Assembly: GCA_964438405.1 (NCBI GenBank)
Contig: CAYTKF010000001.1
Coordinates: 18,860 to 82,859 of the forward strand
From: an uncultured Candidatus Saccharibacteria bacterium
GTDB lineage: Bacteria; Patescibacteriota; Minisyncoccia; UBA9983
Direction: 5' to 3'
Length of the DNA stretch: 64,000 bases
Numbering within the stretch: position 1 is the stretch's first letter; every line of letters starts with the position of its first letter. This document shows, in pieces, positions 2,396 through 62,755 of this stretch. Under the pieces are notes generated by a model. That model searched no databases. It had not been told where the DNA came from and saw only the letters and a program-made list of their open reading frames with translations. The position numbers were made by a program, and so were the translations under genes.

Positions 2396-3548
2396 AAAAG
2401 GGAAAATTATAGCGGTTATGGAAATATCCAGTTCCTCAATTGGCGGTATTTTGTTTGAACAAAACAAGAAAGACAAACCAAAAATTATTTCCACAATCAG
2501 AGTACCGGTGAATTTTCTTTTTGATGTCAGCTTTGAGGCCTTTTGGCGCTGCACCTGTGCCAGTTTTAAAAGTGCAATATTAATGCTTTTAAAAGATTAT
2601 CCAAGCGGACCGGACGAGTGCCTTTGCATTTTTCTTTTCCCTTGGTTTACACCGCAGAGCCGTATCATAAATTTTGAGAGGGAGGAGCCCATCAGGGTTG
2701 ATAGAAAACTTTTTGACGGTATTATAAAAAGCGAAGAGGAAATTTTTAAAACGCACTGGAGATCTTCTCCAGAATCAAACGGACAGCCGGAATTTATAGA
2801 GCATGAAATTTTGAAAGTGGAGCTTAACGGATATTATACTAAGGACCCCATTGGCAAAAAGACAAAAACAATAAAGATTTATTTTTATATGAGTCTGGGA
2901 AGTCAGAAGATAATTAAAGAAATTAAATCTTATATTCTTGATGGATTCGGCGGGATACCCCTGATTTTTAGAACATTTCCATACGTCTCCTTCTCTTTTT
3001 TAAGAGAAAATATGAATACCCAAGAAGGTTTTGTTGTTGTTGATATGAGGGGAGAAATGACAGATATTTCTCTTTTTAGAAAAGACAATATAGAAGAAAT
3101 AGTATCCTTTCCCAAGGGTAGAAATTTTTTCCTTAGAAAAATTGCCTCCAAATTCAACACCTTCCCACAGGAGGCATCATCTCTATTTGAGACCTATTTA
3201 AAAAAACACGCGGAAGATAGCAACGCCCAAAAAATTTCTTTTATAATAGAAGAGTCCCAAAGGGAATGGCGCGAATCTTTTAAATCCGCGCTGGAAAAAA
3301 TTTCCGGCTCCAAACCATTACCCCAGAATATCTTTTTTATAGGAGATGAGGCAATAGGAAATATGTTTATTAAATGCGCTGAGGGAGATGATTTCGCAAA
3401 ATTCACTATTTTTGGACAACCGTTTAATGTCAGTAAAATCCTTTTTGAGGGTTTAAATCAAAGCGTCAATTTTAATATGAAAAGGCCGGCTGAAAAAGGA
3501 GATGTATTTCTTTTAATGGAATCTATTTTTGCAAATAAAAATTTATAA
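2373..3548 (+). CDS. Hypothetical protein, possibly an actin-like ATPase fold (FtsA/PilM-like N-terminus)
   Basis: N-terminus IIAVMEISSSSIGGILFE resembles the first phosphate-binding motif of FtsA/PilM-type proteins. No other recognisable motifs. Confidence 0.3.
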   Translation: MIQKMVHKKGKIIAVMEISSSSIGGILFEQNKKDKPKIISTIRVPVNFLFDVSFEAFWRCTCASFKSAILMLLKDYPSGPDECLCIFLFPWFTPQSRIINFEREEPIRVDRKLFDGIIKSEEEIFKTHWRSSPESNGQPEFIEHEILKVELNGYYTKDPIGKKTKTIKIYFYMSLGSQKIIKEIKSYILDGFGGIPLIFRTFPYVSFSFLRENMNTQEGFVVVDMRGEMTDISLFRKDNIEEIVSFPKGRNFFLRKIASKFNTFPQEASSLFETYLKKHAEDSNAQKISFIIEESQREWRESFKSALEKISGSKPLPQNIFFIGDEAIGNMFIKCAEGDDFAKFTIFGQPFNVSKILFEGLNQSVNFNMKRPAEKGDVFLLMESIFANKNL

Positions 3549-4725
3549 TATTATGGCAAAAAGAATTATTGAAGACGTAATAAGAAAAAAGATAAAACGC
3601 GTGCCAGCACCAGAGGCACCGCAAAAACCACCGCAGGAGCCCAAAGCCCCCGGCAAAAAATCATCCAAGAAAATTTATTTTTTTGTTTTTTTGGTGCTGG
3701 CGGTTATTTTGGGAGCGGGGTTTGTTTTGATAAAATTTTCTTCTGCCAATATAAAAATAACGCCGAGGCAGCAGGTGATAAATATCGATGCCGTTTTTGA
3801 TAATTTGAGCTTTGAAATAATCCAGATGGCCAAAAAAAATTCTCTTTCTTTTAACGCCACCGGCATTTCAAAGGGCGGACAAAGTGCTCGGGGCACAATT
3901 GTCCTTTATAATACCTATAGTTCCAAGGGGCAGTATCTTTTGATTGACACACGCCTTTCAACACCTGATGGGAAAATATATAAAACAGAAAAGGCAGTCA
4001 CTATTCCTGGTAATGGCTCAGTGGAAGTTGGAGTTTATGCGGATAAACCAGGGCCGGATTGTAATATTGGGCTGACAGATTTTTCCATAGTCGGCTTTAA
4101 GGGTACGGCAAAATACGACAAAATTTACGGACGTTCCAAAACATTTATGACCGGAGGAGCGCTGGGGGATACTGTTGTTGCCACAGATGCAGATATAAAC
4201 AACGCCAAAAATTCTCTTGAGAGCCAGCTCACTGATTATTTTTTTGAACAAATGAACAAGCAAAAACCAACTGAATATTTGCTTTATAAAAACGCGCTGG
4301 CTACGGATTTTGTGGAAGAAGTGGGTAAAAATTTTTCTTTTATTGCCAGCGCAACCAGCACCGGGTTCTTGATTAAAAAAGACGGGCTTTCCGGCGCATT
4401 GGTTAAAAAATATCTGTCTCAGAACGGAGAAGACAATAGTAGTGTTTATGTATCAAATCTTGAAGACTTAAATTTTAATCTTGTTTCCAAAAATAACGAC
4501 AACACAAAAATGACTTTTGAAATAAAGGGCGATGCTAATTTTGTCTGGAAAACAGACGAAGAAAAACTGACCAATGATTTGATGTTAGTAAATAACGGAG
4601 ACTATGCGTCGGTCTTCCAAAATTATCCCAATATAGAAAAGGCGGAAATAATCTTTTCTCCCTCCTGGTGGCGCTATCTGCCGAGCGACAAATCAAGAAT
4701 CCATTTTGAAACAGTACTACAGTAA
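3529..4725 (+). CDS. Hypothetical membrane-anchored protein with a Pro/Lys-rich linker and a single N-terminal TM
   Basis: 398 aa. PAPEAPQKPPQEPKAPGKK is followed by the TM segment IYFFVFLVLAVILGAGFVLI and a large extracytoplasmic domain. Confidence 0.4.
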   Translation: MQIKIYNIMAKRIIEDVIRKKIKRVPAPEAPQKPPQEPKAPGKKSSKKIYFFVFLVLAVILGAGFVLIKFSSANIKITPRQQVINIDAVFDNLSFEIIQMAKKNSLSFNATGISKGGQSARGTIVLYNTYSSKGQYLLIDTRLSTPDGKIYKTEKAVTIPGNGSVEVGVYADKPGPDCNIGLTDFSIVGFKGTAKYDKIYGRSKTFMTGGALGDTVVATDADINNAKNSLESQLTDYFFEQMNKQKPTEYLLYKNALATDFVEEVGKNFSFIASATSTGFLIKKDGLSGALVKKYLSQNGEDNSSVYVSNLEDLNFNLVSKNNDNTKMTFEIKGDANFVWKTDEEKLTNDLMLVNNGDYASVFQNYPNIEKAEIIFSPSWWRYLPSDKSRIHFETVLQ

Positions 4726-6612
4726 ACTTTCTGGGTCTATATCTATTTTCCAGTTTGGCGTTAAAGATAACAATTTTTCGTAAAGTTTGGGCTGTTTGTC
4801 CGGCCAGGTTTCTGGGTCTAATTTTAAGAGCAAATGCCAGGAATAAATATTTTTTACTTTGGGAATAAATGCCGGATAAATTATTGGTTTCCATTCTTCT
4901 AAATCTCTTTTTAATTTTTCAATTTCTATTTTTAATTTTGAATTGTCCCTGCCTTCTTTGGTAATTTTAATTAAAAGTTTGAACGGCGGGTATTCAAAAT
5001 TTTTGCGGTTTTCAATTTCGTCTTTATAAAAACCGGAAATATTGCCCTTAACCACGTTGTCAAAAATTGAAGTTGATTCAGCCAATCTGCTCTGGATTAA
5101 AAAAGTCTTTTTTGCCAAATATCTGAGTTTTAATAAAATATGGAAAATTTTTTCATTGATTCTAAAGTCAGGCAGGCCGAAGAGAGAGTCAAGGGAAACT
5201 ACACCAACACGTTCTATGGGAGAATCTTTTAGGGCGTTAAAATAAGAAAAAATTATTTCCGTGCCTATTAAAATTGAGCCGGGCGAGTTCAAAAATTTTT
5301 CCGCAGTTTCCTTTCCCTGTTTTATATTTTTGATAATATCGCTGTCCATTCTAAAAATTTTAAATTTGGGAAAAAGTTTTTCTATTTCCTCAAAAACTTT
5401 TTCCGCGCCCATGCCCAGTGTTATCAATCTCCAGCTCTTGCAATAAGGGCATCTCTCCGGAGATTTTGTGATAGAGAGACATTTGTGGCAGACCCAGTCT
5501 CCGGGCGGTTTATGCAGAACAAGGGGCGTGGCGCATTTATCGCACAATATCACAAATTGGCAGTCCTGGCAGATAGTGGTCGGGCTATGCCCTTTGCGGT
5601 TGATAAACAAAAGAACCCTTTCGTTGTTTTTGTAGGCCTCTTCTATAATTTCTTTAAGCTGATGACTGATGACTAAAAGCTCTTTGGGCCTTTGCCAGTT
5701 CAAACTGCTCTGTTCCTTTTTCATGTCAACGATAATCTGTTCTGCCTCGGACAGGGGGCGGGAAAATGAGGGATTTTTTTCTTTGCCGAAAAAGGTTTCC
5801 GTCCGTATCAGAGAATCGCCGATGATAAAACGTTTTTTTGTTTTTCTGCATATTATTTCAATAATTTTTCTGACGTCGAGATGCGGCCTCTGTTCCAGCT
5901 TGTAAAGAGAAGAATTTTCTTCTTCCATAATTATGGTGCCGATATCTTTTCTCGGCAAAGAGAGAAAAGTTTTTGTGGCTGTTATCAAAACAGGATGTTC
6001 CTCCATTAAAATTTTACTCCACGTCTCCCTGATTTTTTTGGCCGGAATTTTACCGTGCAGAATAAAAGTATAATTTTCTATACCCTTTTGTATTTCCTGA
6101 GAAATTTTTTCCAGATCGGAAATCGCCGGCATACACAAAAAAACAGAATGCCCTCTGGCAAATTCTTCTCTGATTATGCTTTTATAATATTGAAAGCGGT
6201 CTTTGGGAGGATATTGCGCCAGAACAATTTCTTGTCTTGGAAGAGCAGTTTTGATATTCTCGTTTTTTAAAGGGGAAGGATTGTCAAAAATAATTGAGGG
6301 GACAAAATCTTTTAGCACTTCTCCCGCTGACGACAGAAAATATTTTGCGCCTTCTTCGCAGGCGCCTATAAAATCTTTATCAAAGAAACATGAAGCCTTT
6401 ACGCTTTTTATGGATTTTAGGACAAAACCAGACTTTTTGAGAGTGGACTTCAAACTTTTAAGCTCATCCACAGAAGAAACAATTGCCGGAATTATTCTTT
6501 TTTTAAGCGGTATGGTTACAAGAGCGCCCGGCTCCACGTCCTTGCTGGTAAAATAAGAAAGTTTTTCTTTCGGCACGCCCTTGGCAATGGGAATAACATT
6601 TGCGATTTTCAT
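4717..6612 (-). CDS. priA: Primosomal protein N' (PriA)-like; zinc-binding cysteine cluster intact but helicase Walker A/B motifs degenerate
   Basis: 631 aa. C-x2-C...C-x2-C...C-x2-C...C-x2-C cluster (CQDCQ..CDKC..CHKC..CPYC) is typical of PriA. The GxTGSGKT position reads QYPPKDRF and the DEEH position reads MEEEN. Confidence 0.6.
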   Translation of the reverse strand: MKIANVIPIAKGVPKEKLSYFTSKDVEPGALVTIPLKKRIIPAIVSSVDELKSLKSTLKKSGFVLKSIKSVKASCFFDKDFIGACEEGAKYFLSSAGEVLKDFVPSIIFDNPSPLKNENIKTALPRQEIVLAQYPPKDRFQYYKSIIREEFARGHSVFLCMPAISDLEKISQEIQKGIENYTFILHGKIPAKKIRETWSKILMEEHPVLITATKTFLSLPRKDIGTIIMEEENSSLYKLEQRPHLDVRKIIEIICRKTKKRFIIGDSLIRTETFFGKEKNPSFSRPLSEAEQIIVDMKKEQSSLNWQRPKELLVISHQLKEIIEEAYKNNERVLLFINRKGHSPTTICQDCQFVILCDKCATPLVLHKPPGDWVCHKCLSITKSPERCPYCKSWRLITLGMGAEKVFEEIEKLFPKFKIFRMDSDIIKNIKQGKETAEKFLNSPGSILIGTEIIFSYFNALKDSPIERVGVVSLDSLFGLPDFRINEKIFHILLKLRYLAKKTFLIQSRLAESTSIFDNVVKGNISGFYKDEIENRKNFEYPPFKLLIKITKEGRDNSKLKIEIEKLKRDLEEWKPIIYPAFIPKVKNIYSWHLLLKLDPETWPDKQPKLYEKLLSLTPNWKIDIDPESLL

Positions 6613-7466
6613 TTTAAATTTATTTGAATCAAGTTTTGATCGTCTAAAATATACAAAAAATTATCTTTGGAATAGACGGTAAAAATGGGGTCTTTGCCTT
6701 TATAAACCGGCTGAATGTTTCTTCCGCCGCGACCGTCAATTTCTATGGCATAGATGCTGTTTTGCATGGCAAAAATTATGAGGTCTTTTCTGTTTGGATA
6801 AAAATCAATATTTTTAATAAGGGTTTTTAATTCGTAAATTAAAAGCTGGGAAGAACAATTTTTATCGTCGCAAAAAAAATAGGGCAGGGAATTGGAATCA
6901 CTAAGCCATTCCGCCCAGATCTTGTTTGTTTGGGGATCCCACCAGATTTTTTCCTTGCTATTACTGGAAAGCCGGCTGTAATAAAGGTCTTTTTGTGCGT
7001 CAGTGGCTTTTTTATCAAGTGGTTTTTTAAGATTATTCAAGATATTTAAAATTTCTTCGTATTGCGAACTTTCAAGCGGCGAGAAATTTTCTCTAAGTAT
7101 TATTTTGCCATTGGGATTGCTTGGCACCATAAACGCCCTTGCCTCTGTTACTAATTTTTCTTTAACCGCAAGTTTTTTTGACCAAGGCCAATAATCATCT
7201 TTTGTTATGAGAACAGAATATTTGCCGGGCATCAGACTTTGCAAAAAGAGGTCGTTTTGCAGAAAGCCGGTTTCTTTTTCTTCTTTGTTGTTTACGAAAA
7301 TTTTTGAGCCGGAAACAGACGAAGCAATATAAAGTCCGCCGGTCCCGTAAAGCTTCAGTCCGCTGTCCCAGCGATAGCCCATGGTATATAAAAGAACAAC
7401 AGGCGAGGCAACCACAAAAAATAAGAAACACAAAATTAAAACTAATCTTCTGCTTTTGGCAGTCAT
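6609..7466 (-). CDS. Hypothetical signal-anchored protein
   Basis: 285 aa. N-terminal TM segment LVLILCFLFFVVASPVVLL. No recognisable catalytic motif. Confidence 0.4.
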   Translation of the reverse strand: MTAKSRRLVLILCFLFFVVASPVVLLYTMGYRWDSGLKLYGTGGLYIASSVSGSKIFVNNKEEKETGFLQNDLFLQSLMPGKYSVLITKDDYWPWSKKLAVKEKLVTEARAFMVPSNPNGKIILRENFSPLESSQYEEILNILNNLKKPLDKKATDAQKDLYYSRLSSNSKEKIWWDPQTNKIWAEWLSDSNSLPYFFCDDKNCSSQLLIYELKTLIKNIDFYPNRKDLIIFAMQNSIYAIEIDGRGGRNIQPVYKGKDPIFTVYSKDNFLYILDDQNLIQINLK

Positions 7467-7524: not shown

Positions 7525-8538
7525 ATGGTTTTGTTTGTGAAAAAGCTCGGGATTGATTTGGGGACAGCTTCCACTCTTGTTTTTGTGCCAGGCCAGGGCA
7601 TTGTTTTGAATGAACCGTCTGTTGTGGCTGTTTCTGTGCCGGATAATAAGGTTCTGGCAGTGGGCAACGAAGCAAAGGCAATGATAGGAAAAACGCCTGA
7701 CACCATTATTGCTTATCGTCCCATGAAAGACGGAGTGATTGCGGATTATCGTGTGACAGAAGCAATGCTTAAATATTTTATTTCCAAGGCATTGGGCAAA
7801 TGGAATTTTTTCAAACCCGAAGTAATGGTTTCTGTGCCAGCCGGCGTTACGTCTACTCAAAGGCGGGCTGTTGTTGAAGCAGGAGTAAGGGCCGGCGCAA
7901 AAGCAGCTTATGTTGTTAAGGAGCCGGTTTTGGCAGCCATTGGCGCTGGCATTCCTATTAATGAGCCGTCAGGCCACATGATTGTTGATATTGGCGGAGG
8001 AACTATTGACGTGGCAGTAATTTCTCTGGGCGGAATTGTGGCTTCAAATTCTGTTAAATGTGCTGGAGATAAAATTGACCAGGCAATTGCTGATTACATC
8101 AAGAAAAATTTTAATTTGGCAATCGGCGACAGAACAGCCGAAGACATAAAAATTAATATCGGTTCGGCAGTGCCTGTTGATGAAGAAATGACATATAAAA
8201 TTAAGGGCAGAGATTTTCTGACCGGTCTGCCCAGAAGCGCGGAAATCACAACCAACGAAATAGTTAAGGCCATTGACGCGGAATTGCGGGAAATGATGCG
8301 CGCCATTAAAAATGTTCTACAGGATACGCCGCCCGAACTTTCTTCTGATATCATAGACAATGGTATCACCATGACCGGCGGAACTTCGCTTTTGAGAAAT
8401 ATAGATGAGCTTGTTTTCAGAAGCACCGGAGTAAAAGCAAAAGTTGCCGAAGACGCGCTTTTCTGCGTTGCCAAAGGCACAGGAGTTGCCCTAGACCACT
8501 TAAACGCCTACAAAAAAAGCATAATGGCGAAAAGATAA
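7525..8538 (+). CDS. mreB: Rod shape-determining protein MreB (copy 1)
   Basis: GIDLGTASTLVFV, DIGGGTIDVAV and GGTSLL actin-fold motifs; 337 aa. Confidence 0.9.
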   Translation: MVLFVKKLGIDLGTASTLVFVPGQGIVLNEPSVVAVSVPDNKVLAVGNEAKAMIGKTPDTIIAYRPMKDGVIADYRVTEAMLKYFISKALGKWNFFKPEVMVSVPAGVTSTQRRAVVEAGVRAGAKAAYVVKEPVLAAIGAGIPINEPSGHMIVDIGGGTIDVAVISLGGIVASNSVKCAGDKIDQAIADYIKKNFNLAIGDRTAEDIKINIGSAVPVDEEMTYKIKGRDFLTGLPRSAEITTNEIVKAIDAELREMMRAIKNVLQDTPPELSSDIIDNGITMTGGTSLLRNIDELVFRSTGVKAKVAEDALFCVAKGTGVALDHLNAYKKSIMAKR

Positions 8539-9218
8539 TGAAATCTATTTTGGATTTTCATATTGGAAGCGAGAATTTTCATCACGGATATTTGCTGATG
8601 GGGAATCTTGAAGAATCTAAAAAAATAGCTTTTGAAACAGCCAGAGTTATCTTGGACAAAAAAGATAAGCTTGAAACCCATCCGGATTTTTTTTACGAAA
8701 AATACGATTTATTCGGCATTGACGACAGCCATGAAATTATAGGCAAAGCGTCCAAACGTCCGTTGGTAGGCGATAAAAAAGTTTTTATTTTGGAAACCAA
8801 TGGCTTCAGCATCGAGTCGGCCAATGCTCTGCTCAAAACTTTTGAAGAGCCGTATGAAGGCACGCATTTTTTTATTTTATTGCCGTCGCTGGACGATGTT
8901 CTGCCAACTCTGCGTTCGCGCTTAGTTGTCATAAATACTGGCAGGGGAAATATAGAACCGGATGAAGAAAAAGAAGAAACTTTTGAGAAATTTTTAAAAA
9001 GCAATGCTGAAAAACGGCTTGAAATAATAAAAGAATTTTCTGACGACAGATTTACGGCAATGGAATTTTTAAATGGTTTAGAAATAATAATAAACAAAAA
9101 TAAAGAAAAATTATCTGCGCTTAATGAGATCGGCAGGTGCAGGAGTTTTCTTCTTAGCCGCGGCGCGTCAGCCAAAATGGTTTTGGAGCATATTGCGTTG
9201 GCTCTACCAAAAATATAA
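8538..9218 (+). CDS. holB: DNA polymerase III delta-prime (clamp loader) subunit-like, short form
   Basis: HGYLLMG...KKVFILETNGFSIESANALLKTFEEPYEGTHFFIL...LPTLRSR matches the HolB/DnaX AAA+ lid/sensor region. Start overlaps the mreB stop. Confidence 0.55.
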   Translation: MKSILDFHIGSENFHHGYLLMGNLEESKKIAFETARVILDKKDKLETHPDFFYEKYDLFGIDDSHEIIGKASKRPLVGDKKVFILETNGFSIESANALLKTFEEPYEGTHFFILLPSLDDVLPTLRSRLVVINTGRGNIEPDEEKEETFEKFLKSNAEKRLEIIKEFSDDRFTAMEFLNGLEIIINKNKEKLSALNEIGRCRSFLLSRGASAKMVLEHIALALPKI

Positions 9219-9227
9219 AATATATTT

Positions 9228-9779
9228 ATGAAGTACGATTTTTCCAAAACAAAAAATAAAGTGGAGGAGACAAAAGCGTTTTTTAAGCGCGAAATAGCCA
9301 GTTTGCGAACCGGCCGGGCAAGTCCTGTTCTTGTTGAAGATATTCTGGTTGATTCCTATGGCTCAAAATTGCCCATTAAGCATGTGGCCTCAATCAGCGT
9401 TGAAGACGCAAAAACCTTACGCATCACTCCCTGGGACATGTCAGTTATAAAAAATATAGAGAGTGCAATCAGTGGGTCAAATCTGGGCATTCAACCCATT
9501 GCAGACAAGCAGTCCATACGAGTTTCCGTTCCGCAATTGTCAGAAGAGAGGCGCAAGGCATTGCTTAAAATTCTTTCGGAAAAACACGAAGAGGCGAAAA
9601 TTTCTCTGCGCCAGGAGCGGGACGAAACATGGAAAGATATTCAGGACAGGGAAAAAAGAAAAGAAATGTCAGAAGACGAAAAATTCCGCTACAAAGATGA
9701 ACTGCAGAACCTGATAGACAGGGCAAACGAAGAACTGGAAAATCTGTCTGACAGCAAAAAATCAGAAATTAGTAATTAG
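9228..9779 (+). CDS. frr: Ribosome recycling factor
   Basis: LRTGRASPVLVEDILVDSYG...LRITPWD matches the RRF family; 183 aa. Confidence 0.9.
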   Translation: MKYDFSKTKNKVEETKAFFKREIASLRTGRASPVLVEDILVDSYGSKLPIKHVASISVEDAKTLRITPWDMSVIKNIESAISGSNLGIQPIADKQSIRVSVPQLSEERRKALLKILSEKHEEAKISLRQERDETWKDIQDREKRKEMSEDEKFRYKDELQNLIDRANEELENLSDSKKSEISN

Positions 9780-9790
9780 AAATTAAAAAT

Positions 9791-10846
9791 TTGTCTGTAA
9801 TTATTTTTATAATCGTTCTTGCGATTTTGATTTTGTCCCATGAGTTTGGGCATTTTATTACTGCAAAAAAGGCTGGGATAAGAGTGGACGAATTTGCCAT
9901 TGGCTTTCCTCCGCGATTATTCAGCTGGAAAAAAGGGGAAACAACTTACGCCGTAAATCTCTTGCCTCTTGGCGGTTATGTAAAAATTCACGGCGAAGAT
10001 GATGCCACAAACCCAAACGACCCGCGAAGTTTCGCGTCAAAATCAGCGCTGACAAGGACAATGGTTTTGGCTTCAGGTGTTTTGTTTAATCTTGTTCTGG
10101 CATGGGTTTTGATTTCTTTGGGCTATATTATCGGTTTGCCCACCAGCACCTCTGCTGTTCCAGCGGGCGCAAATATCAGTAATGTAAGAATAATTGTCAT
10201 AGAAGTGGCAAAAGATTCTCCTGCAGAAATGGTTGGGATTAAGGCAGGGGATGAGATAATCGGTTTTTCCCGCATTCAAGATTTCCAAAATTTTATCAGC
10301 GTCAACAAAAATAAGGAAGTTTCCATAAATCTAAACCACAACGGAGAAGGTATTTCTGTTAAACTTGTGCCAAGAAAAAATCCGCCCCAGGGCCAGGGCG
10401 CAATCGGCATTGCCATGGACGAGGCAGGCACATTAAAACTTCCGTGGTATAAGGCTTTGCCTTACGCCGCAAAATTTACTTATCAATTAACAATTGCCAT
10501 TGCCGTCGCAACTTATTCTTTTATTGTTGATGCCTTTCGAGGTTTGGCTGGTTTTGACCAGGTGATGGGGCCGGTTGGCATTGCAGGCGCAACAGGAGCT
10601 GCGGCAAAAATGGGATTTTCGTATCTTCTCGGTTTTATTTCTATGCTTTCCATAAATCTGGCTATTATCAATATTCTTCCGTTCCCGGCATTGGACGGCG
10701 GAAGAATTTTATTTCTGCTCATAGAAAAAATTAAGGGCTCGCCAGTGAGCGAAAGATTCAGCAGTATTGCCCACGCCGTAGGCCTGGCATTACTTCTGGT
10801 TCTAATGCTGGCAATAACCTACCGTGACATTTTACGGTTGATCTAA
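9791..10846 (+). CDS. rseP: RIP metalloprotease RseP (site-2 protease, PDZ-containing), TTG start
   Basis: HEFGHFITAKKAGIRVDEFAIGFPP (HExxH), PDZ-like middle region, and C-terminal LDGG motif. Confidence 0.85.
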   Translation: MSVIIFIIVLAILILSHEFGHFITAKKAGIRVDEFAIGFPPRLFSWKKGETTYAVNLLPLGGYVKIHGEDDATNPNDPRSFASKSALTRTMVLASGVLFNLVLAWVLISLGYIIGLPTSTSAVPAGANISNVRIIVIEVAKDSPAEMVGIKAGDEIIGFSRIQDFQNFISVNKNKEVSINLNHNGEGISVKLVPRKNPPQGQGAIGIAMDEAGTLKLPWYKALPYAAKFTYQLTIAIAVATYSFIVDAFRGLAGFDQVMGPVGIAGATGAAAKMGFSYLLGFISMLSINLAIINILPFPALDGGRILFLLIEKIKGSPVSERFSSIAHAVGLALLLVLMLAITYRDILRLI

Positions 10847-10930: not shown

Positions 10931-11593
10931 TTATTGTTTTATTATTGCGCTCTTGAGTAAATTCTTAAAATAATATAAAACTTTCTCATCAGTCATTTCT
11001 TTTACAAGAAATATTTTCACAAGGGGCTTTATATTAAAAAAATCTTTTAAGAATTCTATTTCTTCTATACAAGGGAAAGGATGAACCCAAACGCTTTTCT
11101 GACACTGATAAAAATTAAGATCTTCCAATTTATTTCTAAGCGAGTCTCTAATTTTTCTTTGGTTTTCCGGTATGTCAAAAATAACAAGCCGCCAATTTCC
11201 ATCCCAATTTTTTGGGACACTAATTTTTAATTCATCAAGGATAAACTTTTTAATTTTTTTCTTTCCATTTTCAGTAACAGTATAAATAAGACAATCTTCT
11301 TCTTCTTTTAAAAATTCCAAATTGTGTTTTTGTTTTAATTTATTAAAGGTATACCATATTTTTCTATATTCTTCGTAACTTTCTCTTTTTTGCCTTTGTC
11401 TTATTTTTTCTATTATTCCTAAAACGTTAGGGAAGGCGACGCCAAAGGTTAAAATTCCTCCGGTAGCTATTAATGCAAGGGTGGCATTAAGAGTAGTTTT
11501 GGCTTTAGAGTTTTCTTTTATTATCCTTAAAAGATACTTTTTAAGGTTTGGTTCTAGGGTTGTTTCAAATTTTATCGGTTTGTGTTTAGGCAT
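10931..11593 (-). CDS. PaaX-family transcriptional regulator-like protein (paralog 1)
   Basis: NWDGNWRLVIFDIPENQRKIRDSLRNKLEDLNFYQCQKSVWVHP parallels the WDGKW...LW.GFG...P core of PaaX. Paralogous to 48177..48734. Confidence 0.5.
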   Translation of the reverse strand: MPKHKPIKFETTLEPNLKKYLLRIIKENSKAKTTLNATLALIATGGILTFGVAFPNVLGIIEKIRQRQKRESYEEYRKIWYTFNKLKQKHNLEFLKEEEDCLIYTVTENGKKKIKKFILDELKISVPKNWDGNWRLVIFDIPENQRKIRDSLRNKLEDLNFYQCQKSVWVHPFPCIEEIEFLKDFFNIKPLVKIFLVKEMTDEKVLYYFKNLLKSAIIKQ

Positions 11594-11726: not shown

Positions 11727-11951
11727 ATGATGAAAACAGGCAAAATAATTATCTTTACTTTTATTTTATTCATTTTTTTCTTTTTTACGCCTCATTCTTT
11801 TGCCGCCACTTCTCCGGATTGGACCATTAATTTCAGTTGGAACGATGTGTCTGTTAATAATAACGGTCAATATGATTTTCCGTTAAATGTTCAAGGAAAC
11901 GGTACTTATACTTGGCTAGGTGGAAGTGCTTATGGTGAGATATATAAATGA
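11727..11951 (+). CDS. Small secreted protein, or the signal-peptide-bearing N-terminal part of the downstream peptidase (ATGA stop/start overlap)
   Basis: Signal peptide IIIFTFILFIFFFFTPHSFAATSP. Its TGA stop overlaps the ATG of the next ORF. Confidence 0.4.
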   Translation: MMKTGKIIIFTFILFIFFFFTPHSFAATSPDWTINFSWNDVSVNNNGQYDFPLNVQGNGTYTWLGGSAYGEIYK

Positions 11952-13282
11952 TTGAGTTTGATGTGGGAACGGGAGTGCCGTTGTATACACAAATATTATC
12001 ACCTTATCCATCAATATCTGATACTGATGAATGGGATGGACTAAAGTATGCTGATGGTAATTCTGATTGTGGTTTTAGCATCTCTAACTGTGGATGCGCC
12101 ATTACTTCTATCGTAATGGTTGCCAGAAGTTATAGAATAACAAATACCCAAGAACTTGATGTCAATCCAAAAGAAATAAACAACTGGCTTAATAGTGAAT
12201 CAGGAGGATATGTAAATGGAGGTGTTAATTGGATTGCAGCCGCAAAATACACGGGCTGGAGAATCAAGTACGAAAAAAGCGACAAAACTACAAACAACTA
12301 CGTGCTTTTAGATGAAAAACTTAATAACAACCAGCCAGTTATTGCCAAAGCCAATCGTGGAAGAGGTGGCATTAGCCGCGAACATTTCTTTGTAATAGAT
12401 AAAAAATTAGCTTCCACTTATTCTGTTAAAGACCCTGCCTGGTATAATACCAAAATATTAAACGAAGGTTTTAATAGTGACATTCAGCACGTCAGAAATT
12501 ACGATAACGGCTTTGACGGCTTGAGAATTTACAAGAAAGGAGACGGAATTGCCCAAAAAGCCATGACCCTTGTTCTTGGTTCTCCGGCAGAACTTTTAAT
12601 AACCGATTCTTTTGGTAATAAACTTGGCAAAGACCAAAACGGCGTAGAATATAACCAGATATCCAACGGCTGGTATTTTGAGGAAGGGTTTGATGATCCC
12701 ACGGGAGAAAATCCGCCCTCTCAACATAAAAATAAAATCATTCAAATACTGGAGCCTACCGATGGTCAATATGATATCCAGATTATAGGCACCGGTGCAG
12801 GAAATTATTCTCTTAACTCAGATATTTACGATTCAGACGGCAATTCTCATTTCCAGACAATAACCGGCAACACCCAGCCGAATCTTATAACCGATTATTC
12901 TCTTAATTTAACCAATGGCAAGCCCGGAGAAATTGTTATTCCTGTCTCAATTGATATCAAGCCCGGCACTTACCCTAACAGCATTAATCTGGGCTCTAAT
13001 GGCGTTATTCCTGTGGCAATTTTTGGTTCTGCGGCGCTTGATGTTAAAAATATTAATATTCCTACAATTAGACTTGGCAGTGCTTCTGTTAAACTTAAGG
13101 GTAATGGGCAATCCGTTTTTAACTACTCTGACTTAAACACAGACGGTTTTATTGATGTTGTTGTAAAAATATCCACCGAAACATTTAGTTTGTCATCAAC
13201 TGACATTACTACAAACCTTGAAGGTAAATTACAAAATGGAATAACCATCAGGGGTTCTGATTCCGTACGAATTGTACCATGA
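11948..13282 (+). CDS. Papain-like (C39-like) cysteine peptidase domain protein with a C-terminal beta-rich domain
   Basis: NCGCAITSIVM catalytic-Cys context and downstream REHFFVID (His) resemble the C39/papain-like fold. It has no signal peptide of its own. Confidence 0.4.
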   Translation: MIEFDVGTGVPLYTQILSPYPSISDTDEWDGLKYADGNSDCGFSISNCGCAITSIVMVARSYRITNTQELDVNPKEINNWLNSESGGYVNGGVNWIAAAKYTGWRIKYEKSDKTTNNYVLLDEKLNNNQPVIAKANRGRGGISREHFFVIDKKLASTYSVKDPAWYNTKILNEGFNSDIQHVRNYDNGFDGLRIYKKGDGIAQKAMTLVLGSPAELLITDSFGNKLGKDQNGVEYNQISNGWYFEEGFDDPTGENPPSQHKNKIIQILEPTDGQYDIQIIGTGAGNYSLNSDIYDSDGNSHFQTITGNTQPNLITDYSLNLTNGKPGEIVIPVSIDIKPGTYPNSINLGSNGVIPVAIFGSAALDVKNINIPTIRLGSASVKLKGNGQSVFNYSDLNTDGFIDVVVKISTETFSLSSTDITTNLEGKLQNGITIRGSDSVRIVP

Positions 13283-14268
13283 GCAAAAAAATTAAAATTC
13301 TAATAATTTCAATTTTCTTAGTTTTTGCGGTCGCTATAGCTATTTTTTATTTCATAAAACCAACAAAATCAGGATGCTTAAGTGATAACAGTGTGACAAC
13401 TTACGAAAACGATAAAGATAATACTTATATTGTAGTGTCTGACAAAAAAACAGGACAAGAGATAAATCGTTTTCAAATCAAAAATATAATTACTGATCAT
13501 TATCATGGTCAAGAATTACATAAATGTAACTTTTATGTGATAAGACAATTTAATTACGATAGTAAAACAAGACGCAAAACACCAAATTACAGCGCCGAAT
13601 TATGGTCATATAATTATACCCAGAATGGCCTCTCAATTTTAACCTTTAGCAAAACAGACAATAATGGCAATTATCTATTATTTTTTAATGATGACTTCCG
13701 CATTTCTCCTGATGAGAAATATCTTGCTCTTGAAAAAGGTTATGCCGGCCAAGATGATTATTCTATTGTCATTAAAACTCTTTCAGATAAAAAAGATGCT
13801 TTCATAATATCTGCCAAAGAGCTTTCTCAAAAATATCCCGATATTGTCGGGAATTTCGGTCTTAAAGAATGGACAAAAGACGGCAGATATTTTTGGGGAA
13901 ATATTTTTGATGGAGCAGACGTGTTAGCTTTCTTTAGAATAGAAATCGGAACTTGGAAATGGGAAGTATTTGAGGCGCCAGTTGGAACAATGGGCGGAGA
14001 TGTCCTAAATCCCGAATTGGGATATGTTACATATGATGATGGTTCGCCGTGGACAGGATTTGCCGATTTAGACCAAGCGTATCGCGAACAATGGAAAAAA
14101 GAAGGTAAAATTGTTCATTTTTATCTTTATAACTTATTTACAAAAGAGAAAACTCTTTTGGCCACTTATGACGATCCCACCTATTTCACTAAACCCAAAT
14201 GGCTTTCTGACACTCAGCTTCAATACGAAATGCCGAACGGGGAAAAGAGGATTTATGAAATTAAATGA
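13279..14268 (+). CDS. Hypothetical membrane-anchored protein
   Basis: N-terminal TM segment ILIISIFLVFAVAIAIFYFI; 329 aa; no known motif. Confidence 0.4.
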   Translation: MSKKIKILIISIFLVFAVAIAIFYFIKPTKSGCLSDNSVTTYENDKDNTYIVVSDKKTGQEINRFQIKNIITDHYHGQELHKCNFYVIRQFNYDSKTRRKTPNYSAELWSYNYTQNGLSILTFSKTDNNGNYLLFFNDDFRISPDEKYLALEKGYAGQDDYSIVIKTLSDKKDAFIISAKELSQKYPDIVGNFGLKEWTKDGRYFWGNIFDGADVLAFFRIEIGTWKWEVFEAPVGTMGGDVLNPELGYVTYDDGSPWTGFADLDQAYREQWKKEGKIVHFYLYNLFTKEKTLLATYDDPTYFTKPKWLSDTQLQYEMPNGEKRIYEIK

Positions 14269-14290
14269 GTCTTTCATGGGGTTTAATCTT

Positions 14291-14311
14291 CCCCGAGGTT
14301 TAACCTCGGGG
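14291..14311 (+). terminator. Hairpin ccccgaggtt-t-aacctcgggg after the preceding CDS (no clean T-tract)
   Basis: Perfect 10-bp inverted repeat 23 nt after the stop codon. Confidence 0.35.
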
Positions 14312-14320
14312 AGTCTTAAG

Positions 14321-14384
14321 AAATCCTTGCTTCGTTTAAATTTTTGAAGTAGAGTTAATAATTATAAGTTAAACCATTAAACTT
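14321..14384 (+). promoter_or_regulatory. Conserved 64-nt leader/promoter region, copy A (upstream of S8 protease 1)
   Basis: aaatccttgcttcgtttaaatttttgaagtagagttaataattataagttaaaccattaaactt. About 85% identical to 16262..16324. Possible -35 ttgctt and -10 tagagt/tagtat. Confidence 0.5.
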
Positions 14385-16259
14385 ATGAAAAAAATACACA
14401 ACCATCTACTTGAACACAGCAAATGGTATAGTGATTGGCACAACTATTCACGCTGCTCAGTGGTGCACTGGGCTGTATTTGTTGTTGTTACTATGCTGCT
14501 TATGACCGGTACTTTATTGAGTATTCAGAAATTTGTTGTTTTAACAGAAAGTGAATCCAATATTGCCAGCGTTATAGTTCCCAGCTATAAGGGCGGTAAA
14601 GTCGGAGAAGCAGAAGACCATATTTTGGTAAAATTTAAAAAAACTTTGACTACCAAAGAACAAGAAAAAATACTTTCCAGAAACAATTTGAAAGAGAAAT
14701 CAGAAATTAAAGCCATCGGTGTAAAATTAATCTCTATCTCCGCCGATGATACTCCCCAAGAAGCAGTAGACAAATTGAAAGCCAAGGAAAAAGGCAATCT
14801 GGAATTTGTTGAAGTTGATGCTATTTTAGCTCCTGATTTAATACCAAATGATTCCTATTGGCCAAGCCAGTGGGACAAATCAAAGATCAACACTCCCTTA
14901 GCTTGGGATTCTAATACTGGCTCAAATACTGTAATTGTGGGTGTCGCGGATACAGGTGTTGATTGCACCCACGAAGATTTAACGGCCAATTGTGTTTCCG
15001 GTTGGAATTTTTATGATAACAATTCAAATGCTGCTGATGTTTATGGCCATGGGACTGCTGTTGCCGGAATTATTGGAGCTGCCGGCAATAATGCAAGGGG
15101 GGTAGCCGGAACAGTTTGGAATTCTAAAATTATGCCATTGCGGGTTAGCGGAACCAGTGGTTCCGCTACCTATTCGGCCATTGCCCAAGCTATAATTTAT
15201 GCAGCTGACCATGGAGTAAAAGTGGTGAACAACAGCTATCAATCGGGAGGCAGCGCCACAGTTAGGAGCGCTGCTCATTATTTGAAAAGTAAAGGAGGGC
15301 TTCTTATAGTAAGTGAGGGTAATTACGGCACTCTTACTAGCTACGACAATAGCCCGGACCTGATATCTGTCTCTGCAACTGACCCCAATGATGCTCTCTA
15401 TTCTTGGTCGTCTTATGGCAATGATGTGGACGTTTCTGCCCCGGGCTGCGGATATGCCACAGCAAACGGCGGAAGTTATAGAAGTTTTTGCGGCACTTCC
15501 AATTCTGCCCCGGAAGTGGCAGGTGCTCTGGCTCTTATCTTTTCGGTTAATTCTAGCTTAACTGCCGATCAAGCCCAAACTATCTTATTCAATTCCGCAA
15601 AAGATCTTGGCATTGCAGGTTGGGATATATATTTCGGATGGGGCAGAATAGATGTCGGGGCGGCCGTGGCATTGGCTAAGGGCGGAACTTCAAATGACAC
15701 TACTTCTCCTTCGGCACCAACCAATCTTTCCGCCTCTGCTCCGGATGAGACAAAAGTAAATTTGGCATGGACAGCTTCTATCGACAATACAGGAGTTGTC
15801 GGTTACCAAGTGTTTAGAGACAGCAATCAAATTGCCATTGTAAGCTCAACTAATTATACAGATACAAATGTTACTTCTGGTGCCAGTTATTCATACACAG
15901 TCAAGGCTTACGATGCTGTTGGTAATGTCTCTCCAAGTAGCAATACAGCTACAGTTACTGTGCCCACTGTTTCTGCCAAAGTCAGTATTTTGAATTATTC
16001 CGTAACAAAAAAGACTGCCACTACAGCCACTATCACTTGGACCACCAACATTCCCTCTACTGGTTTTGTCTCCTATAGTTCATCTTCTATAAACTTAAAT
16101 CTTTCTGCCACTGACGGAATTATCGGAACTACACATTCTGTAACAATTACTAATTTGACCAAATTCAGGATATATTATTACAAAATTACTGTTACCAGCG
16201 GAGATGGTTCCAGCACAGCTTCATCACCGGTTTCAAATTTCAGAACTAATAAAAAATAA
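14385..16259 (+). CDS. Secreted subtilisin-like serine protease (S8) with C-terminal fibronectin-III-like domains
   Basis: Catalytic triad contexts VGVADTGVD (Asp), HGTAVAGIIGA (His), GTSNSAPEVAG (Ser). Two FN3-like repeats at the C-terminus. Confidence 0.85.
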   Translation: MKKIHNHLLEHSKWYSDWHNYSRCSVVHWAVFVVVTMLLMTGTLLSIQKFVVLTESESNIASVIVPSYKGGKVGEAEDHILVKFKKTLTTKEQEKILSRNNLKEKSEIKAIGVKLISISADDTPQEAVDKLKAKEKGNLEFVEVDAILAPDLIPNDSYWPSQWDKSKINTPLAWDSNTGSNTVIVGVADTGVDCTHEDLTANCVSGWNFYDNNSNAADVYGHGTAVAGIIGAAGNNARGVAGTVWNSKIMPLRVSGTSGSATYSAIAQAIIYAADHGVKVVNNSYQSGGSATVRSAAHYLKSKGGLLIVSEGNYGTLTSYDNSPDLISVSATDPNDALYSWSSYGNDVDVSAPGCGYATANGGSYRSFCGTSNSAPEVAGALALIFSVNSSLTADQAQTILFNSAKDLGIAGWDIYFGWGRIDVGAAVALAKGGTSNDTTSPSAPTNLSASAPDETKVNLAWTASIDNTGVVGYQVFRDSNQIAIVSSTNYTDTNVTSGASYSYTVKAYDAVGNVSPSSNTATVTVPTVSAKVSILNYSVTKKTATTATITWTTNIPSTGFVSYSSSSINLNLSATDGIIGTTHSVTITNLTKFRIYYYKITVTSGDGSSTASSPVSNFRTNKK

Positions 16260-16261
16260 CC

Positions 16262-16324
16262 AAATCCTTGCTTCGTTTAAGTTTTTGAAGTAGTATTAAG
16301 AATTATAAGTTAAACTATTAAATT
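16262..16324 (+). promoter_or_regulatory. Conserved leader/promoter region, copy B (upstream of S8 protease 2)
   Basis: aaatccttgcttcgtttaagtttttgaagtagtattaagaattataagttaaactattaaatt. Confidence 0.5.
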
Positions 16325-17521
16325 ATGATGAAAAAATACATTGTTTTAGCCTCATTATTGGCCGTATTGGTCGCGGTTTTCTTTCTTGTGGGAACAGTAA
16401 GCGCTCGGGTGGCCATTGATAAAGGTGACTCGCATAAAAGAGTAATTGCTCACAGCGAAGAAGAAATAAGCAAGGCAGTTTCCTTGGGTTGCAGGATTGT
16501 AAGAGAGGCAAGGACGTTAAAAGCGCTTCGCTGTCCACGGGGAGTGGCTGAATCTTTATCGCTTAGTGAAGATGTAAAAGTTTTTGCTTTAGACGATGAG
16601 AAAGTCGGCGTCTTGAAAAGTCCTCAGCCCAGTGCAACGAGTGCCAGCGCCAACCAACAAATCGGCGCTGATATTGTTCATGCTTCCGGAAATACTGGCA
16701 TCGGCAGAAAAATAGTGGTTCTTGATACTGGTTATAACTATAATCATCCTGAATTAAGTTCCAGCTATCTTGACGGTAAAGACTTTGTTAACGACGATAA
16801 CGACCCAATGGATGACGATGGTCATGGCAGCCATGTATCAGGGATTATTACTGCTGATGGAATTAATCCCAAGGCTAAGGGCGTGGCTCCTGATGCAGGA
16901 GTTATCGCAGGCAAAGTACTCGACCAAAACGGCTCGGGCTATTTCAGCGATGTAGTGGCTGGTATTTACTGGGCAATAGACGGACCTGACGGTGTCTATG
17001 GCAATGCTGACGATTTTGGCGCCGATGCAATCAATCTTAGTTTGGGAACCTCTAGACCCTACACTTATAAAGGATTCTGTGACGGAGTTTTGCCTGATCT
17101 TACAAATGCCGTCAAATACGCAGTTGAAAGGAATGTAACTGTGGTGGTGGCTGCTGGGAACAATAGTAGTTCTGGGGTTTCTATTCCTGGTTGCATCAGC
17201 TACTCCACGACAGCTGGTGCTGTTGACAGTAGAGATAGAGTTGCCAGTTTTTCCAGCAAAGGTAATGCTTTAGATATCACTGCTCCTGGGGTAAGTATTT
17301 ATTCTACTGTTTTGGGAAGCGGTTACGCGAGTTGGAGCGGCACCAGTATGGCCACTCCAATGATAAGCGGCGTGGTGGGCCTTGTGAAAAATGCTCATCC
17401 AGCGTACACGCAGGCACAGATTGAAAGCAAACTCTTTAGCACTGCTAAAGATTTGGGCTCAAGAGGGAAAGATACAAGTTACGGCTGGGGCAGAGTAAGA
17501 GCAAATCTAGCTGTTAAGTAA
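16325..17521 (+). CDS. Secreted subtilisin-like serine protease (S8), second copy
   Basis: VVLDTGYNYNHPEL (Asp), HGSHVSGII (His), GTSMATPMISGV (Ser). N-terminal signal anchor. Confidence 0.85.
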   Translation: MMKKYIVLASLLAVLVAVFFLVGTVSARVAIDKGDSHKRVIAHSEEEISKAVSLGCRIVREARTLKALRCPRGVAESLSLSEDVKVFALDDEKVGVLKSPQPSATSASANQQIGADIVHASGNTGIGRKIVVLDTGYNYNHPELSSSYLDGKDFVNDDNDPMDDDGHGSHVSGIITADGINPKAKGVAPDAGVIAGKVLDQNGSGYFSDVVAGIYWAIDGPDGVYGNADDFGADAINLSLGTSRPYTYKGFCDGVLPDLTNAVKYAVERNVTVVVAAGNNSSSGVSIPGCISYSTTAGAVDSRDRVASFSSKGNALDITAPGVSIYSTVLGSGYASWSGTSMATPMISGVVGLVKNAHPAYTQAQIESKLFSTAKDLGSRGKDTSYGWGRVRANLAVK

Positions 17522-30741: not shown

Positions 30742-31797
30742 ATGTTCGATAGATTTTACAAACTTTTTTCCAATGACATCGGCATTGATTTGGGCACTGC
30801 CACCACTCTTGTTTACGTTGCCGGCAAGGGAATTGTTATAAACGAACCCTCTGTGGTTGCCGTCAATCAAAAAACAGGGCAGATTGTGGCCATTGGCAAT
30901 GAGGCAAAAAAAATGCTGGGCAGAACGCCGGGCCACATAAAAGCTGTATGCCCCCTGGTAGACGGAGTTATTTCCGATTTTGAAATTACTCAAGAAATGC
31001 TTTTTTATTTTATTAAAAAAGTTCAGGAGGGCAAAAGATTCAGTTTTTTCGGCAGGCCGAGAGTTGTTGTGGGCGTGCCCTCTGGCATCACCAATGTTGA
31101 GGCGCGGGCAGTGCGCGACGCGGCAAAAAACGCCGGAGCCAGAGAAGTTTATCTTATAGAAGAGCCCATGGCCGCTGCCATTGGCATACGCCTGCCCATT
31201 CACGAGCCAATCGGCAACATGATTATTGATATAGGAGGAGGTACAACGGACATTGCTGTTATTTCTTTGAGCGGAATTGTTACTTCAAAAAATGTGCGTC
31301 TAGCAGGAGACAGATTAAATCAAGATATCATTGAATACGCGCGGGATGAATTTAAAATTCTTCTGGGAGAAAGAACAGCCGAAGACATAAAAATCGCCAT
31401 TGGCTCTGTTAACAAAAACAGCGAGGGCCTGGAGGCGACAATCAGGGGAAGAGACCTCATTACCGGTTTGCCGCGCGAGGTGGTTGTCACTGATTCTGAT
31501 ATCAAGGAGGCCATATGGAAATCAATCCAGACTCTTGTGACGGCAACCAGAGAAGTGATAGAACAGACTCCGCCGGAGCTCGTGGCTGATATTATGCACA
31601 GAGGAATTGCGATGGTTGGAGGCGGAGCATTCTTAAGGGGCTTTGCCAAAATTCTGGAACAGGAGACAAAAATCCCTGTTTATGTGGCAGAGGACCCGTT
31701 GACTGCGGTGGTGCGGGGCACGGGAATTGTTCTGGAAGATTTGGAAAATTTAAAAGATGTTTTAGTTCAACATGAAGACAATATCCCTCCAAAATAA
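30742..31797 (+). CDS. mreB: Rod shape-determining protein MreB (copy 2), first gene of an mreBCD-pbp2 cluster
   Basis: GIDLGTATTLVYV, DIGGGTTDIAV, MVGGGAFL motifs; 351 aa. Confidence 0.85.
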   Translation: MFDRFYKLFSNDIGIDLGTATTLVYVAGKGIVINEPSVVAVNQKTGQIVAIGNEAKKMLGRTPGHIKAVCPLVDGVISDFEITQEMLFYFIKKVQEGKRFSFFGRPRVVVGVPSGITNVEARAVRDAAKNAGAREVYLIEEPMAAAIGIRLPIHEPIGNMIIDIGGGTTDIAVISLSGIVTSKNVRLAGDRLNQDIIEYARDEFKILLGERTAEDIKIAIGSVNKNSEGLEATIRGRDLITGLPREVVVTDSDIKEAIWKSIQTLVTATREVIEQTPPELVADIMHRGIAMVGGGAFLRGFAKILEQETKIPVYVAEDPLTAVVRGTGIVLEDLENLKDVLVQHEDNIPPK

Positions 31798-32506
31798 AAG
31801 CAGAAAGGGAACGATTATTTTAATTATCATCGCTGTTCTTGTTTTTGCCTTTTTTGTTTTTAATAACTCCGCCAGACAGTTTGTCAGCCGGCCTTTTATT
31901 TCTCTCGGCAAGTCACTGTTTAATATCAGGAATTCCATTGGCCAGAACGAACTCGAAAATCAGAACGTGGAACTTCAGGCAAAAATTTTATCTTTGTCTC
32001 CGCTGGAAAAAGAAAACGAAGACCTTAAATCATTGTTGTCAAGAATCAAAAACCCGGCCAGTTATATTCTTGGTTCAATAATTTCCCGGCCTCCGCAGTC
32101 GCCCTATGATATTTTAATTATTGATGCCGGCTCGGAACAAGGAGTTAAATCCGGCGCCAAGGTTACTGCTTACTCCGAAATATTACTGGGTTATGTGGCA
32201 GAAGTTTATCCGGCTTCCAGCAAAGTAAAACTTATTTCTTTCCCCGGCGAACAGACAAACATAAATATTTTAAATGCCGGAATTTCAGCTACAGCCACGG
32301 GCAGAGGGGGGGAAAATCTGGAAATTCAGATTCCTGATTCTCTGGACGCCAATACCGGAGATTTTGTTTTGACACAGGGAACATATCCATTATCGCTCGG
32401 CACAATAGAAAGAATTGAGGTCAACACAAACGAAGCATTCAAAAAACTTTTTTTCCGTCTGCCCATAAACCTGAACGAACTAAAATACGTAGTGATAGAA
32501 AAATAA
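31772..32506 (+). CDS. mreC: Rod shape-determining protein MreC
   Basis: N-terminal TM, coiled-coil (NELENQNVELQAKILSL..ENEDLKSLL), then a beta-barrel-type region (SRPPQSPYDILIIDAGSEQGVKSGAKV). Confidence 0.7.
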   Translation: MKTISLQNKSRKGTIILIIIAVLVFAFFVFNNSARQFVSRPFISLGKSLFNIRNSIGQNELENQNVELQAKILSLSPLEKENEDLKSLLSRIKNPASYILGSIISRPPQSPYDILIIDAGSEQGVKSGAKVTAYSEILLGYVAEVYPASSKVKLISFPGEQTNINILNAGISATATGRGGENLEIQIPDSLDANTGDFVLTQGTYPLSLGTIERIEVNTNEAFKKLFFRLPINLNELKYVVIEK

Positions 32507-62750: not shown

Positions 62751-62755
62751 TTTTT

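Follow-up and report, generated by a model that had tools for sequence, protein, structure and literature searches.

PriA proteins deprived of their motor are known from two settings, one engineered and one natural. In Escherichia coli, the substitutions K230R (priA300), K230A and K230D render PriA inactive as an ATPase, a helicase and a translocase and leave primosome assembly and PriA-PriB restart in place (PMC5778457), and the K230A variant was used in DnaB-loading assays on ATPase-dead PriA (PMC10175261). The native PriA of Deinococcus radiodurans carries arginine instead of this lysine, has no ATPase or helicase activity and binds single-stranded DNA (ssDNA), forks and DnaB (PMC4504706). 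On a fork, the 3'-end-binding domain and the C-terminal domain of E. coli PriA touch the leading arm, the winged-helix domain and helicase lobe 1 touch the parental duplex, the lagging-strand ssDNA sits in a pore that lobe 2 makes with the zinc and C-terminal domains, and rotation of the zinc domain exposes a PriB docking site made of D438, S481, T482 and H483 (PMC10175261). The current study concerns a priA-like gene found in a stretch of 64,000 nucleotides (64 kb, hereafter the window) of contig CAYTKF010000001.1, deposited under the name of an uncultured Candidatus Saccharibacteria bacterium, whose product keeps the architecture of PriA and has lost its motor motifs:

4717..6612, minus strand: priA-like coding sequence (PriA pseudohelicase), ATG start, 631 amino acids (aa) plus stop, the sole exact match among the open reading frames (ORFs)

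By analogy with the systems described above, it is quite likely that this gene is a priA orthologue that has been turned, in Parcubacteria, into an ATP-independent scaffold for fork recognition and helicase reloading. The best explanation of its sequence is that the protein can neither bind nor hydrolyse ATP and would hence neither translocate along DNA nor unwind it. The first-pass annotation of the window had proposed an ATPase-dead PriA, and this proposal is well supported: the nucleotide motifs are gone, arginine stands at the position of the Walker lysine, an exchange that kills the ATPase of E. coli PriA (PMC5778457), and the gene is under strong purifying selection.

The window protein is a PriA. 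TIGR00595, the curated equivalog model for PriA (primosomal protein N') named 'replication restart helicase PriA', matches aa 143-627 over model positions 14-508 of 509 with 256.5 bits, against a cutoff of 230.35, and the Pfam families PF18074 (PriA_C, aa 543-627, 31 bits with a cutoff of 26.9) and PF17764 (PriA_3primeBD, 23.8 bits with a cutoff of 22.7) are also recognised. Zn_ribbon_PriA scored below threshold (16.5 vs 26 bits), and no Pfam match to DEAD, ResIII or Helicase_C was obtained in the protein even at E<=1. Identity to canonical PriA is 21-27%; phmmer matched the Klebsiella pneumoniae PriA 4nl4 and the E. coli PriA structures (E 2e-31), and alignment of the family profile with E. 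coli PriA in hhalign gave a probability of 100 and an E-value of 2.5e-39. An AlphaFold2 (AF2) model built from an alignment of 87 relatives reached a predicted local distance difference test (pLDDT) score of 89.4 and a predicted template modelling (pTM) score of 0.87, and in Foldseek it superposed on E. coli and K. pneumoniae PriA with template modelling (TM) scores of 0.74-0.76, the next folds (Mfd and other superfamily 2 (SF2) helicases) reaching only about 0.3. The highest query-normalised TM among the PDB matches belonged to 6dcr, a winged-helix deletion of E. coli PriA (TMq 0.76, TMt 0.75, root-mean-square deviation 5.2 A). Database annotations of the relatives likewise read primosomal protein N'.

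The motor motifs were positioned by three independent alignments, namely phmmer (4nl4), MAFFT (E. coli, Bacillus and Staphylococcus aureus PriA) and hhalign, and their remnants are as follows:

6193..6216, minus strand, aa 133-140: Walker A remnant QYPPKDRF, a glycine-free loop one residue shorter than the canonical one, with Arg139 at the K230 position
5914..5928, minus strand, aa 229-233: Walker B remnant MEEEN, family pattern [ED]-x-E-[SNG]
5794..5820, minus strand, aa 265-273: motif III remnant GDSLIRTET, SAT gone (GSATP replaced by GDSLI)
5239..5265, minus strand, aa 450-458: motif V remnant GTEIIFSYF, canonical GTQMLAKGHHF
5107..5130, minus strand, aa 495-502: motif VI remnant KLRYLAKK, canonical QVAGRAGRAGK, with the arginine finger QxxGRAGR lost

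The three alignments agree in setting Q-YPPKDRF against the Walker A motif GVTGSGKT and MEEEN against IDEEH, the two replacements that the first-pass annotation had read by eye. The loss of Walker B is less complete than was claimed there, since the histidine has become asparagine and the acidic residues are kept conservatively (D to E, E, E). These motifs were examined in 120 close homologues, in the representatives of 150 clusters at 50% identity and in a further 109 sequences, and in all of them, as in the window protein, motifs I, III, V and VI are absent and motif II is degenerate. Arginine fills the Walker lysine column in 149/151 representatives and 109/109 further relatives, glutamate is found at the position of E322, the second Walker B glutamate, in 144/151 and 109/109, respectively, most relatives have S, N or G in place of His323, and all representatives (151/151) share the 5-residue deletion in motif VI. 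A pattern search for G..G.GK[ST] found no match anywhere in the window protein or in 391 relatives, and neither this search nor the three alignments revealed an intact GxxGxGK[ST] and DExH elsewhere in the protein, the finding that the first-pass annotation had named as fatal to its claim. Beyond Walker A and DEEH, the loss takes in three more motifs (III, V and VI) as well as the Q-motif region and the winged-helix domain. Judging from the general geometry of P-loop NTPases, the invariant Arg139 and Glu232 are probably joined by a salt bridge and so stabilise the nucleotide site in its empty state.

This form of the protein is conserved among its relatives. The 120 closest database homologues (43-62% identity) are full length and carry the same degenerate motifs, which recur in the 150 best representatives from clustering at 50% identity (35-48% identity, at least 398 bits in each case), and the sequences that replace the former motifs are themselves conserved. 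Mean conservation of the former helicase lobes is 0.66-0.67 (0.67 in lobe 1 and 0.66 in lobe 2), compared with 0.66-0.70 in the other domains; linkers are the only variable segments of the family, and the lengths of the relatives' proteins (606-688 aa) show no truncation. The ratio of non-synonymous to synonymous substitution rates (dN/dS) was estimated by the Nei-Gojobori method for orthologue pairs from different genomes, and the three pairs with unsaturated dS gave 0.014 (dS 0.42), 0.056 (dS 0.85) and 0.11 (dS 0.16) for the gene, with 0.027-0.087 in lobe 1 and 0.012-0.085 in lobe 2. The pseudohelicase gene is thus under strong purifying selection.

A scan of one genome per GTDB species with family-specific peptide patterns, including the mutated Walker A helix and the mutated motif V, showed that at least 502 species genomes encode the dead-motor PriA, and the family comprises at least 150 clusters at 50% identity. 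Where titles and protein names are informative they point to one group (Parcubacteria, Paceibacterota/Paceibacteria, Minisyncoccia, and Terry-, Taylor-, Vogel-, Zambryski- and Lloydbacteria). The suggestion of the first-pass annotation that the loss may be an adaptation in a reduced genome must accordingly be widened, because the trait is common to the whole class Parcubacteria and not particular to this one reduced genome. Less degenerate intermediates were not encountered: the best of the 150 representatives keep just 10/36 canonical motif residues, and a second database search seeded with one of the five most canonical-looking members (P0154) returned the same degenerate family only. Regarding nomenclature, many third-party annotation (TPA) metagenome-assembled genomes titled 'uncultured Candidatus Saccharibacteria bacterium' (loci L008, L009, L013 and many others) carry a Parcubacteria-type PriA and synteny, and the label 'Candidatus Saccharibacteria' on such genomes is probably generic or wrong.

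The domains that surround and include the former motor are largely retained, in the following order from the N-terminus:

6283..6612, minus strand, aa 1-110: 3'-end-binding domain, recognised by PF17764 and covered by hhalign and Foldseek
6238..6282, minus strand, aa 111-125: short variable linker, in place of about residues 110-215 of E. coli PriA, where the winged-helix domain and the Q-motif region lie
5758..6237, minus strand, aa 126-285: former helicase lobe 1, RecA-like fold kept (AF2 secondary structure, pLDDT >90)
5866..5904, minus strand, aa 237-249: aromatic-rich-loop region YKLEQRPHLDVRK, partly shared with canonical PriA (YK..., R)
5578..5757, minus strand, aa 286-345: inter-lobe segment and start of lobe 2, including motif IV LFINRKGHSP
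5428..5577, minus strand, aa 346-395: Cys-rich zinc region, CQDC...CDKC...CHKC...CPYC followed by conserved KSWRL
4993..5427, minus strand, aa 396-540: former helicase lobe 2 (AF2 secondary structure)
4720..4992, minus strand, aa 541-631: PriA C-terminal domain, PF18074, with YPPFK invariant or nearly so

Both RecA-like lobes are present, with the eight-cysteine zinc domain inserted in lobe 2, as seen from the AF2 model and the cysteine pattern. The cysteine pairs (CQDC 348-351, CDKC 357-360, CHKC 375-378 and CPYC 388-391) are complete, as the first-pass annotation had stated, and the 87-sequence family alignment shows all eight to be invariant, with D350 and W394 at least 90% conserved. As a separate observation, the distant member P0187 has lost Cys3, Cys4 and Cys6 and kept Cys1, 2, 5, 7 and 8, which suggests that some lineages can do without one of their two zinc sites.

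Motifs Ib and IV are nucleic-acid contacts in SF2 helicases, and both are kept in the window protein (Ib as T-[KR]-S and IV as LF.NR[RK]G), together with part of the aromatic-rich loop. The motif IV sequence LFINRKGHSP matches the canonical LFLNRRGFAP, with R339 and G341 at least 90% conserved. The loss of motor motifs is therefore selective, with the DNA-contact motifs Ib and IV retained. In the aromatic-rich-loop region, which touches fork DNA in E. coli PriA (PMC5778457), Y237, K238, P243, D246 and R248 are each at least 90% conserved in the same alignment. Between the 3'-end-binding domain and lobe 1, by contrast with E. coli PriA, the alignment has a gap of about 90 residues filled by a linker of about 15, the least conserved segment, and the winged-helix domain that lies there is absent.

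The first-pass annotation had predicted that the protein can still recognise forks and recruit partners. The retained domains are consistent with both abilities, which we infer by analogy with E. coli and Deinococcus PriA. To recognise abandoned forks or D-loops, the protein would rely on its two terminal domains (3'-end-binding and C-terminal) and on the contact surfaces that the dead lobes have retained, namely motif Ib, motif IV and the aromatic-rich loop; the ssDNA of the lagging-strand template may be held in a channel that lobe 2 frames with the zinc and C-terminal domains. Family-invariant D350 and the segment CPYCKSWRL align with the positions of the PriB-docking residues of E. coli PriA and are, for this reason, a candidate partner site; this invariant face of the zinc domain could dock DnaB or a DnaB loader and so return the helicase to the fork without ATP. 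A bolder version of the proposal, which we regard as tentative, is that Parcubacteria independently made PriA an ATP-free fork sensor without a winged helix, in which the Arg139-Glu232 pair replaces the nucleotide and CPYCKSWRL recruits DnaB or its loader directly. If this were true, a single protein would make up the restart primosome, and PriA pseudohelicases would have arisen in nature for a second time after Deinococcus-Thermus, in a more radical form.

Several observations weigh against the reading as an ATP-independent restart scaffold. The 3'-end-binding domain, called intact in the first-pass annotation, is so in its fold, with PF17764 above its cutoff, and has an altered pocket: hhalign and MAFFT align LSYF (aa 18-21) with F16-D17-Y18 of E. 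coli PriA, placing Ser19 at the position of Asp17, a residue reported to be crucial for 3'-end recognition (PMC4129139), and L18, S19, Y20 and F21 are each at least 90% conserved in the family alignment. When aligned to E. coli PriA by MAFFT, the family shows no conserved counterpart of the arginine implicated in binding the SSB tail, and together with the serine in the 3'-end pocket this suggests that fork recognition may differ from that of E. coli. The missing winged-helix domain is a parental-duplex contact in the E. coli protein. Annotation with Pfam detected no dnaB, dciA or ssb in the 64-kb window, the window gene lacks def and fmt as neighbours and is coupled to a membrane-protein gene, and it is possible that a canonical priA lies elsewhere in the genome, the search for a second PriA having covered the 64-kb window only.

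The last two points lead to the gene neighbourhood, the features of which are the following:

3529-4725: convergent 398-aa ORF, overlapping the 3' end of priA by 9 nucleotides
6609..7466, minus strand: gene upstream of priA in the same direction, encoding 285 aa with a membrane helix at the N-terminus and a weak, sub-threshold PEGA-like domain
7525-10846, plus strand: mreB-holB(delta')-frr-rseP cluster, divergent from priA
11904-13299 in relative L082 and 11970-14570 in relative L083: examples of the priA-def-fmt arrangement

Downstream of priA, def follows directly on the same strand within 300 nucleotides in 51/77 related loci with enough flank, and fmt lies within 3 kb in 52/68 related loci. 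The canonical priA of Bacillus velezensis has the same priA-def-fmt order, and that of S. aureus has it with two intervening genes. Neither def nor fmt is found in the 64-kb window, and this absence, along with the convergent ORF at the 3' end of priA, suggests a local rearrangement in the window lineage. On the upstream side, the TGA stop of the 285-aa gene overlaps the priA ATG (ATGA), so the two genes are probably co-translated; a homologue of the 285-aa protein lies directly upstream of priA in at least 23/80 related loci, and the mreB-holB-frr-rseP cluster is kept upstream in 39-65/80 Parcubacteria loci.

It is this upstream side that lends some credit to the best surviving alternative, in which the window gene would be a neofunctionalised paralogue with a role outside restart, for instance in the cell envelope, and a canonical PriA encoded elsewhere would perform restart. 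Translational coupling to a membrane-protein gene beside mreB, in a neighbourhood that recurs in relatives, would suit such a role, as would the restriction of the search for a second PriA to the window. Nevertheless, holB, encoding the delta' subunit of DNA polymerase III, is a conserved neighbour too, most relatives have the gene in the classical priA-def-fmt position, the equivalog cutoff of TIGR00595 is passed by a protein whose relatives are annotated as primosomal protein N', and Pfam annotation of the remaining ORFs of the 64-kb window disclosed no second PriA-like gene. We therefore judge a paralogue improbable; given the classical position in most relatives, the equivalog score and the lack of a second PriA-like gene in the window, the best explanation is that the window gene is the genome's own functional priA orthologue.

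Less probable still, and in our view very unlikely, is a cryptic enzyme that has kept its unwinding of DNA and both binds and hydrolyses nucleotide by non-canonical means, for example with Arg139 and Glu230-232 or at a second site. The protein does keep the acids of Walker B, its residue at the Walker lysine position is invariably basic, and there is a proposal that E. coli PriA has a second, weaker site for nucleotide (PMC5778457). Such an enzyme would, however, have to work with a loop that is one residue too short and has no glycine-rich P-loop, with the Q-motif region deleted, SAT gone and the arginine finger removed by the 5-residue deletion, when K230R alone abolishes the ATPase of E. 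coli PriA (PMC5778457) and the D. radiodurans protein, with the same lysine to arginine exchange, has no measurable ATPase (PMC4504706). Finally, decay of the gene under relaxed selection, which the first-pass annotation had left as its other option and which a small genome of the Candidate Phyla Radiation (CPR) type with large-scale loss of catalytic motifs might suggest, is refuted by the domain-wide conservation and the dN/dS of 0.014-0.11, and has a negligible chance of being right: every relative has an intact, full-length ORF, constraint on the former lobes matches that on the other parts of the protein, and hundreds of related genomes conserve the same dead-motor form (391 relatives and at least 502 species), which argues for a working protein.

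Further features of the window were noted. There are two MreB paralogues (7525-8538 and 30742-32506), the second followed by mreC and a PBP2-type transpeptidase (33585-35231). Two S8 subtilases are encoded at 14385-17521, and the segment 19835-28755 (plus strand) contains type IV pilus ATPase and platform genes (PilB/PilC-like), followed by small unannotated ORFs and a 1207-aa surface protein with the SpaA/prealbumin fold. Two small proteins, at 10931-11593 (minus strand) and 48177-48734 (plus strand), have a PaaX central/Cas2-like domain, with no CRISPR context noticed, and a DUF763 protein (420 bits; 60141-61289, plus strand) adjoins an HlyD-like/ABC transporter pair (61308-63472).

If the gene is indeed an ATP-independent restart scaffold, its significance would extend beyond this locus. 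In Parcubacteria, a much larger and more diverse lineage, PriA has stayed under strong selection with its whole motor gone, thus providing a clade-wide natural experiment on the dispensability of that motor and natural evidence that the indispensable functions of PriA are fork recognition and helicase reloading, not unwinding. Structural and biochemical studies of restart without ATP, in bacteria whose PriB and DnaT are not recognisable, could also use the protein as a minimal PriA. These proteins score above the TIGR00595 cutoff, and to annotate them with a Gene Ontology (GO) term of the kind 'DNA duplex unwinding' would be an error; the Joint Genome Institute (JGI) entry of one relative is labelled 'superfamily II helicase'.

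A search of the full-text literature found no description of a PriA pseudohelicase in CPR bacteria, Patescibacteria, Parcubacteria, Paceibacteria or Saccharibacteria, the single co-mention being unrelated. A tblastn search of PLSDB with E. coli PriA and the window protein as queries gave no Deinococcus-Thermus PriA among the matches listed, and the cloning primers in PMC4504706 encode only about six residues at each end of the Deinococcus protein. The same search produced one unrelated observation, a match to residues 232-364 only of E. coli PriA in CP144833.1 (Candidatus Stammera capleta, 110572-110970), and the priA of this reduced insect-symbiont replicon may be truncated or degraded.

Compared with the known systems, the window protein resembles canonical PriA (PDB 4nl4, 6dgd and 8fak) in its 3'-end-binding domain, RecA-like lobes, eight-cysteine zinc insert and S10-like C-terminal domain, and in motif Ib, motif IV and some of the aromatic-rich loop, and most of its relatives, unlike the window locus itself, share the priA-def-fmt order with Firmicutes; it differs in lacking the ATPase motifs and the winged helix and in having serine for Asp17. 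The engineered deletion 6dcr has the same domain set without the winged helix, but is enzymatically competent, whereas the window protein has lost the motor motifs as well. The E. coli priA300 protein carries exactly the same lysine to arginine exchange at the same position. Each K230 variant, however, was engineered and departs from an intact motor by one substitution; these variants need PriB, DnaT and DnaC, none of which is known from CPR bacteria, and they fail in the PriA-PriC pathway. A further close likeness is to the Deinococcus-Thermus pseudohelicase (Lopper et al., 2015, PMC4504706), with which the window protein shares the arginine at the Walker lysine, a degenerate Walker B, poor matches to motifs I and II, the overall PriA architecture, an organism without recognisable PriB or DnaT and a presumed role as ATP-independent restart scaffold. 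The Deinococcus form was characterised biochemically and the Parcubacteria family is known from sequence and model; in the latter the whole P-loop, SAT, motif V and arginine finger are erased and the winged helix is absent, in a different and unrelated phylum. Overall, a natural PriA pseudohelicase was already known from Deinococcus-Thermus, and what the Parcubacteria family adds is another phylum, a fuller erasure of the motor, the absence of the winged helix and a very large clade.

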